From: Shigella phage sb1
Reading direction: 5' to 3' (one strand)
DNA: 64,000 nucleotides
Sequence record: PQ666539
Under the pieces are notes generated by a model. That model saw only the letters and a list, made by a program, of their open reading frames with translations. It made no database searches and was not told where the DNA came from. This document shows, piece after piece, positions 22,059-23,230 of this stretch; position 1 is the first letter of the stretch, and each line of letters opens with the position of its first letter. Position numbers and translations under genes: made by a program.

Positions 22059-23230
22059 GTATGTTGCAACGCCCAGGATATCCAAATCTCAGCGTTAAAT
22101 TATTTGATAGCTACGACGCTTGGAGTAATAATAGATTTGTTGAATTAGCTGCTACTATTACCACATTAACTATGCGGGATTCTCTTTATGGCCGAAATGA
22201 AGGAATGTTGCATTTTTATGATTCTAAAAATATCCATACAAAAATGGATGGAAATGAAATAATTCAGATTTCTGTAGCTAATGCAAACGATATTAATAAT
22301 GTTAAAACACGAATTTATGGATGCAAGCATTTTTCCGTGTCAGTAGATTCAAAGGGTGATAACATCATTGCTATTGAATTGGGAACTATTCATTCTATAG
22401 AAAATCTTAAATTTGGCAGACCGTTTTTCTCTGATGCAGGTGAATCTATAAAGGAAATGCTTGGTGTCATTTATCAGGATCGCACGTTATTAACTCCAGC
22501 AATAAATGCCATAAATGCTTATGTTCCTGATATTCCATGGACTAGCACATTTGAAAACTATTTGTCGTATGTCAGAGAAGTTGCTCTAGCTGTAGGAAGT
22601 GACAAATTTGTATTTGTGTGGCAAGACATCATGTGAGTTAACATGATGGACTATGATATGATGATAAATCAAGAACCGTATCCAATGATTGTCGGTGAGC
22701 CATCTTTAATAGGTCAATTCATCCAAGAATTAAAATATCCATTAGCATATGATTTCGTTTGTTTGACTAAATCGAATCCTCATAAACGCGACCCAATGAA
22801 AAACGCTACTATCTATGCGCATTCATTTTTAGATTCTTCATTGCCAATGATTACTACAGGAAAGGGCGAAAACTCTATTGTAGTGTCAAGGTCAGGTGCT
22901 TATTCTGAAATGACTTATAGGAATGGATATGAAGAATCTATTCGTCTTCAAACTATGGCACAATACGATGGCTATGCTAAATGTTCTACTGTCGGTAATT
23001 TTAACTTGACTCCTGGAGTTAAAATTATTTTTAATTATAGTAAAAAACAATTTAAAAAAGAATTTTACGTTGATTAAGTTATCCATGAATTATCCAATAA
23101 TAATTCAGTAACTCATCTATATATGTTCACTAATGCAACGAAACTGGAAACAATAGACCCAGTTAAGGTTAAAAATGAATTTAAATCTGATACTACCACT
23201 GAAGAAAGTAGTTCTTCCAATAAGCAATAA
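22055..23230 (+). CDS. 27: Baseplate hub protein gp27, interrupted by in-frame TGA (22634-22636) and TAA (23075-23077)
   Basis: Same-frame pieces total 391 codons, the T4 gp27 length. Confidence 0.85.

Follow-up and report, generated by a model that had tools for sequence, protein, structure and literature searches.

An in-frame TAA in gene 27 of a Tequatrovirus record is most likely one of many unselected G:C>T:A sequence errors

The window analysed here is a stretch of 64,000 nucleotides from the record of Shigella phage sb1 (PQ666539), a Tequatrovirus (T4-type) segment that extends from gp13 to gp37. Over 24 kb, the public records closest to it reach only about 96-97% identity; within positions 12000-36000, one phage record reaches at least 99% identity to some part of the window. 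Gene 27, which encodes the baseplate hub or central spike complex protein gp27, lies in the 25-26-51-27-28-29-48-54 hub cluster, where gene order and overlaps equal those of annotated relatives (Table 1). Residues 1-391 of its translation align collinearly to residues 1-391 of T4 gp27 (PDB 1K28 chain D, E=5.9e-258), a full-length match that bears out the identification of the gene as T4 gene 27 in an earlier note on this DNA. At the nucleotide level, gene 27 is 98.7% identical to the best phage record, in which it is annotated as a baseplate hub, and 506 Tequatrovirus-type records match it at 90-99% identity. Full-length homology together with the conserved cluster position places the product in the family of the T4 gp27 baseplate hub. 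Compared with T4 gp27 in the gp5-gp27 complex (PDB 1K28), the protein is an ordinary orthologue, full length and collinear, from which it is set apart by two nonsense and about nine missense changes.

Table 1. Features of gene 27 and neighbouring sites, in window coordinates.
Feature	Position	Strand	Detail
Gene 51 in-frame stop	21609-21611	+	TAA from GAA
Gene 27 (baseplate hub / central spike complex protein gp27)	22055-23230	+	391 codons, two nonsense codons inside
First in-frame stop of gene 27, codon 194	22634-22636	+	TGA from GGA (Gly194) via G>T
gp27 missense G:C>T:A upstream of the TAA	23036	+	G>T, Asp>Tyr; also in sb4
gp27 missense G:C>T:A upstream of the TAA	23047	+	C>A, Asn>Lys; also in sb4 and sb2
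gp27 missense G:C>T:A upstream of the TAA	23058	+	C>A, Thr>Lys; also in sb4 and sb2
Second in-frame stop of gene 27, codon 341	23075-23077	+	TAA from GAA (Glu341), single G>T at 23075
Gene 28 (baseplate hub distal subunit)	23175-23708	+	sb2, KNP5 and Ec_YwIITB1 have the homologous CDS in their annotation
Natural terminator of gene 27	23228-23230	+	TAA; gene end at the homologous position in the annotation of relatives
Gene 29 in-frame stop	23897-23899	+	TGA from GGA

Translation of gene 27 confirmed the in-frame TAA on which the earlier note had focused. Beyond this codon the frame continues, as had been claimed, for 50 codons to the natural stop (exactly 50 sense codons, 23078-23227), and the gene end overlaps the start of gene 28, whose open reading frame begins at 23175, by 56 nt. 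The internal stop at codon 341 and the natural terminator are the identical codon. If the sequence is taken literally, codon 341 is unreachable because translation already ends at codon 194. In gp27, the two stops, together with six missense changes, are G:C>T:A substitutions that are absent from every clean relative.

Alignment to T4 gp27, which had been proposed as a check on the in-frame stop, places a glutamate at residue 341 and a glycine at residue 194 of the T4 protein (PDB 1K28). At the DNA level, GAA was found at the position of the TAA in all five relatives aligned at first, and in seven of seven once sb3 and sb4 were added; at codon 194, GGA is present in 7/7 relatives. The earlier note had named a sense codon at this position in a reference alignment as the observation that would count against it, and its presence in every relative speaks against a special meaning of the stop. 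By alignment, the TAA replaces an ancestral GAA codon (Glu341).

The same picture was obtained from searches with short queries. A 79-nt query centred on the TAA matched 375 phage records, none of them identically, and the best of these 375, sb2, differs from it by one mismatch, namely the T of the TAA. In IMG/VR, a 29-mer carrying the TAA had no matches, compared with two for the GAA version; the TAA version likewise had no exact 39-mer match in viral, metagenome or genome contigs, and look-ups with two gp27 fragments returned no exact-protein match.

The earlier note had listed this TAA as the second of two in gene 27. Two stops are indeed present there, but the phenomenon is not specific to the gene. 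All long open reading frames of a relative were compared with the window by tblastn, and the codons were then compared with those of up to seven relatives. This survey yielded a total of 29 internal stops in 20 genes, at sites between 1858 and 61232. Four stops fall in gp34 and two each in gp17, gp22, gp27, an alc-like ORF, rnlA and nrdA, where the two are adjacent; a single stop is found in each of gp16, gp18, gp23, uvsY, gp51, gp29, gp48, a 96-aa ORF, alt, an Rz-like ORF, gp32, gp35 and gp36. The affected genes include early and late genes and lie on both strands. TAA, TGA and TAG are all found among the 29, and the residues replaced are Glu, Gly, Ser, Tyr or Leu. On the coding strand, 23 stops originate from G>T, four from C>A and one from T>A, and one needs two changes, so that a single G>T or C>A explains 27/29. 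Nonsense codons in gp27, gp23, gp18, gp17 and gp32, among other genes, mean that no plaque-forming phage can have the sequence as written.

To place these stops in the context of all substitutions, private substitutions were defined as window bases found in no aligned relative, at sites where the relatives agree. The first 48 kb contain 611 such substitutions, 193 of which are G:C>T:A (99 C>A and 94 G>T). This class makes up 32% of private changes in the window; in Ec_MI-02 and pSs-1, which are clean relatives, the figure is about 5%. Counts of private G:C>T:A sites are 179-193 in the window, 5-7 in MI-02 and pSs-1, the two cleanest relatives, and 15-20 in KNP5. The resulting overlay amounts to 1.13% of G:C sites in the first 48 kb. 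The first 48 kb, over which the alignment includes four or more relatives, contain no private indels.

The coding effects of the overlay are those of neutral change. Private G:C>T:A substitutions split 138/20/19 into missense, nonsense and synonymous; when all G>T and C>A changes open to the reconstructed ancestral coding sequence are enumerated, the neutral expectation for these categories is 140.1/20.8/16.2 (chi-square p=0.76). Their distribution over the three codon positions is 69/62/46. Private A:T>G:C changes comprise 141 synonymous vs 18 missense. The trinucleotide context of the overlay equals the background, the two strands are about equally affected (94 G>T, 99 C>A), and the spacing of sites is near-Poisson, with intervals close to exponential. 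One local accumulation stands out in uvsW, where eight G:C>T:A changes fall within 115 nt (18052-18165) and about 0.5 would be expected; there, G>T lies mostly to the left and C>A to the right, an arrangement that recalls a single bad fragment, and window-wide there is no orientation bias. Among private G:C>A:T changes (positions 1-48000), 40 missense and two nonsense were counted in 135-139, compared with 18 missense in about 170 A:T>G:C changes. This higher non-synonymous share suggests a second, smaller class of unselected errors, for example of the cytosine-deamination type.

Since the overlay is blind to strand, to codon position and to whether a gene is early or late, it never passed through phage replication under selection. 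The record is composed of a selected T4-like backbone, marked by synonymous transitions, and an overlay that never met selection. Gene 27 conforms to this description. It contains 42 G:C sites at which a G>T or C>A would make a stop; at 1.13% per G:C site, the expected number of nonsense codons is 0.47, with a probability of 0.38 for at least one and 0.08 for at least two. With 0.47 expected from the overlay rate, two nonsense codons in the gene are unremarkable. A stop within an essential gene that is 98% conserved is no event of random sequence, yet it is fully explained by the substitution overlay.

Three sibling records bear on the origin of the overlay. [quoted passage not shown] In that study, ADG1 (PQ666539), the record from which the window is taken, has the lowest G+C content, 35.16%, and an inflated CDS count (285 vs 254-255). 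Over a shared stretch of 46.5 kb, G+C content increases from the window (35.88) through sb4 (36.01) and sb2 (36.08) to sb3 (36.11), an order that agrees with the genome-wide order ADG1 < TMC4 < AKR2 < CDR3 in the published description. Both sb2 and sb4 resemble the window in their type of backbone and in an excess of G:C>T:A, with 44 and 133 G:C>T:A-derived sites, respectively. In sb4 (PQ666542), gp27, gp28, gp48, alt, DNA ligase and rnlA are all split, a fragmentation like that of the window, and in sb2 (PQ666540), gp18 is split at the window's own TAA (4125). The 48 kb stretch of sb4 carries 83 CDS vs about 65 in its siblings. In contrast to the window, private A:T>T:A (81) and A:T>C:G (43) changes are in excess in sb4 as well, and the error spectrum therefore varies among the sibling libraries.

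Some of the derived sites are common to more than one record. The window shares 15 G:C>T:A sites with sb4 and 16 with sb2, and sb2 and sb4 share 11, where 0.3-1.6 would be expected; in all, 28 G:C>T:A sites of the window also occur in sb2 and/or sb4, and none are common to sb3 or Ec_YwIITB1. Sibling-shared sites form clusters at 8954-9032, 13682-13737, 23036-23058 and 43015-43042, and their combinations are mosaic within 40-80 nt. Nonsense codons held in common are the gp18 TAA at 4125 (window and sb2) and a TAA at 43017 (window and sb4). The TAA at codon 341, on the other hand, is private to the window, and the stop that closes the second gp27 fragment of sb4 lies 30 nt downstream (corresponding to 23105-23107). 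A shared recombinant segment was rejected as the source of the sites shared with sb2 and sb4, as natural differences persist around them. That the same sites recur in three libraries is more than purely random damage would explain; it suggests an additional cross-library or site-specific component. Quality problems extend to an unrelated record, that of the nearest relative, Escherichia phage Ec_YwIITB1 (PQ356294), in which the major capsid gene is annotated in two pieces with an in-frame TAA and TAG (11348-12909 in its own coordinates); hoc is also annotated in two pieces. Because of these problems, Ec_YwIITB1 is a poor sole reference.

It is very likely that the TAA is a former GAA: several hundred unselected G:C>T:A changes overlie an ordinary T4-like genome, and one of them fell on this codon, most likely as an error of the assembly. 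In this mechanism, guanine damage or G>T miscalls would arise in an Illumina library of low complexity or low coverage, and the damaged or miscalled bases would, most likely, be fixed at consensus level in the deposited assembly. Fixation in the consensus would presumably require very few independent templates per position, as with low unique coverage or with duplicate families. We infer that a laboratory or assembly step produced the errors.

Oxidation of guanine during library preparation is known by its signature of G>T/C>A changes (PMC3616734), and the window resembles the 8-oxoG artefact described by Costello et al. (2013, PMC3616734) in its excess of G:C>T:A only, its lack of indels and its blindness to function and selection. 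The described artefact is sub-clonal, with low allele fraction and read-orientation bias, whereas the changes in the window are in the consensus and, also unlike that artefact, recur in part in sibling libraries. An argument against such an artefact is that oxidative damage, being of low allele fraction, should miss a well-covered consensus, and an extra condition is needed, such as low coverage, few templates or duplicate jackpots.

Other technical sources were considered. Nanopore miscalls or miscalls of modified bases (glucosyl-hmC) are unlikely given the lack of private indels and of any dependence on context. GG-specific guanine oxidation was set aside, as a 5' C is not enriched when the changes are represented as C>A. 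An origin from a single strand or from single reads was rejected on a run test, same-type adjacency and GT..CA order in the consensus, all of which were non-significant. Deliberate or accidental in-silico corruption would look alike, but is less likely because independent GenBank siblings bear a like defect.

The alternative that comes nearest to a sequence artefact, though an improbable one, is that the changes are genuine mutations in non-viable molecules. A T4-like genome with 8-oxoG G>T changes, or one under a G:C>T:A mutator condition, would have been caught as one or a few molecules, or kept going by complementation in a mixed lysate at high multiplicity. The pure G:C>T:A spectrum without indels is what 8-oxoG mispairing predicts, and the nested sharing of sites among three sibling genomes superficially resembles inheritance. 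However, the shared sites sit in backgrounds with many natural differences, so they do not reflect descent, and selection is wholly absent. About 29 nonsense codons per 64 kb, with gp23, gp18, gp17, gp32 and gp27 among the essential genes hit, are incompatible with a plaque-purified, propagating phage, and mutation of about 1% of G:C sites is orders of magnitude beyond any known in vivo mutator. Somewhat less probable again is hypermutation of guanine in vivo, by oxidative attack or by a guanine-targeting host defence, that would have left dead-end molecules in which the shared sites are hot spots of damage.

Programmed recoding, in which the TAA would be reassigned, suppressed, read through or bypassed as in T4 gene 60 and full-length gp27 would be made, is highly unlikely. 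The frame does continue perfectly past the stop, the downstream 50 codons are conserved, and T4-type phages have a tRNA cluster of their own, located outside the window; no tRNA genes were found in the 64 kb. There is also a superficial likeness to phages that reassign TAG or TGA in late genes with suppressor tRNAs, in that in-frame stops occur within conserved structural genes. Unlike those systems, the window has its stops in early and late genes alike, they are not conserved in relatives, and the same codons still act as true terminators, TAA at the end of gene 27 and TGA at the end of gene 51 (22056-22058). Recoding would, moreover, have to accommodate three stop types and five ancestral amino acids, with most stops one nucleotide from the ancestral codon, a TAA that occurs in no relative and no public sequence, and missense G:C>T:A changes at an equal neutral rate. 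Bypass of the gene 60 type was rejected on the collinear protein alignment, in which exactly one codon (Glu341) is replaced, with no inserted gap and no hop.

T4 genetics rests on nonsense mutants, and mutants of gene 27, which encodes an essential hub protein, exist; a conditional-lethal laboratory mutant of gene 27 (ochre/opal) grown on a suppressor host is nevertheless scarcely credible: nonsense codons of all three kinds number 29 and hit 20 genes, unselected missense changes come to about 140 per 48 kb, no host efficiently suppresses all three stops, and the backbone is of the wild lake-water type of Tequatrovirus, about 3% diverged from other isolates, and not a T4 laboratory stock.

A sequence-quality artefact, or at best unselected damage, is what the TAA at codon 341 represents, and it has no meaningful reading by ribosomes. 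For users of these records, the analysis amounts to a quality warning: the record of the window and at least its siblings sb2 (PQ666540) and sb4 (PQ666542) carry roughly one wrong base per 250 nt, and the spurious pseudogenes that result number in the dozens, the spurious amino-acid changes in the hundreds. As the errors are record-wide, in-frame stops, split genes and odd residues of the window should be discounted unless comparison with relatives upholds them. More generally, a quick test of artefact vs recoding is to take a single substitution class and set its observed missense/nonsense/synonymous counts against those expected. For the phage itself, the TAA in gene 27 has no biological weight and points to nothing unusual in translation; the actual phage almost certainly carries GAA at this codon and makes full-length gp27.
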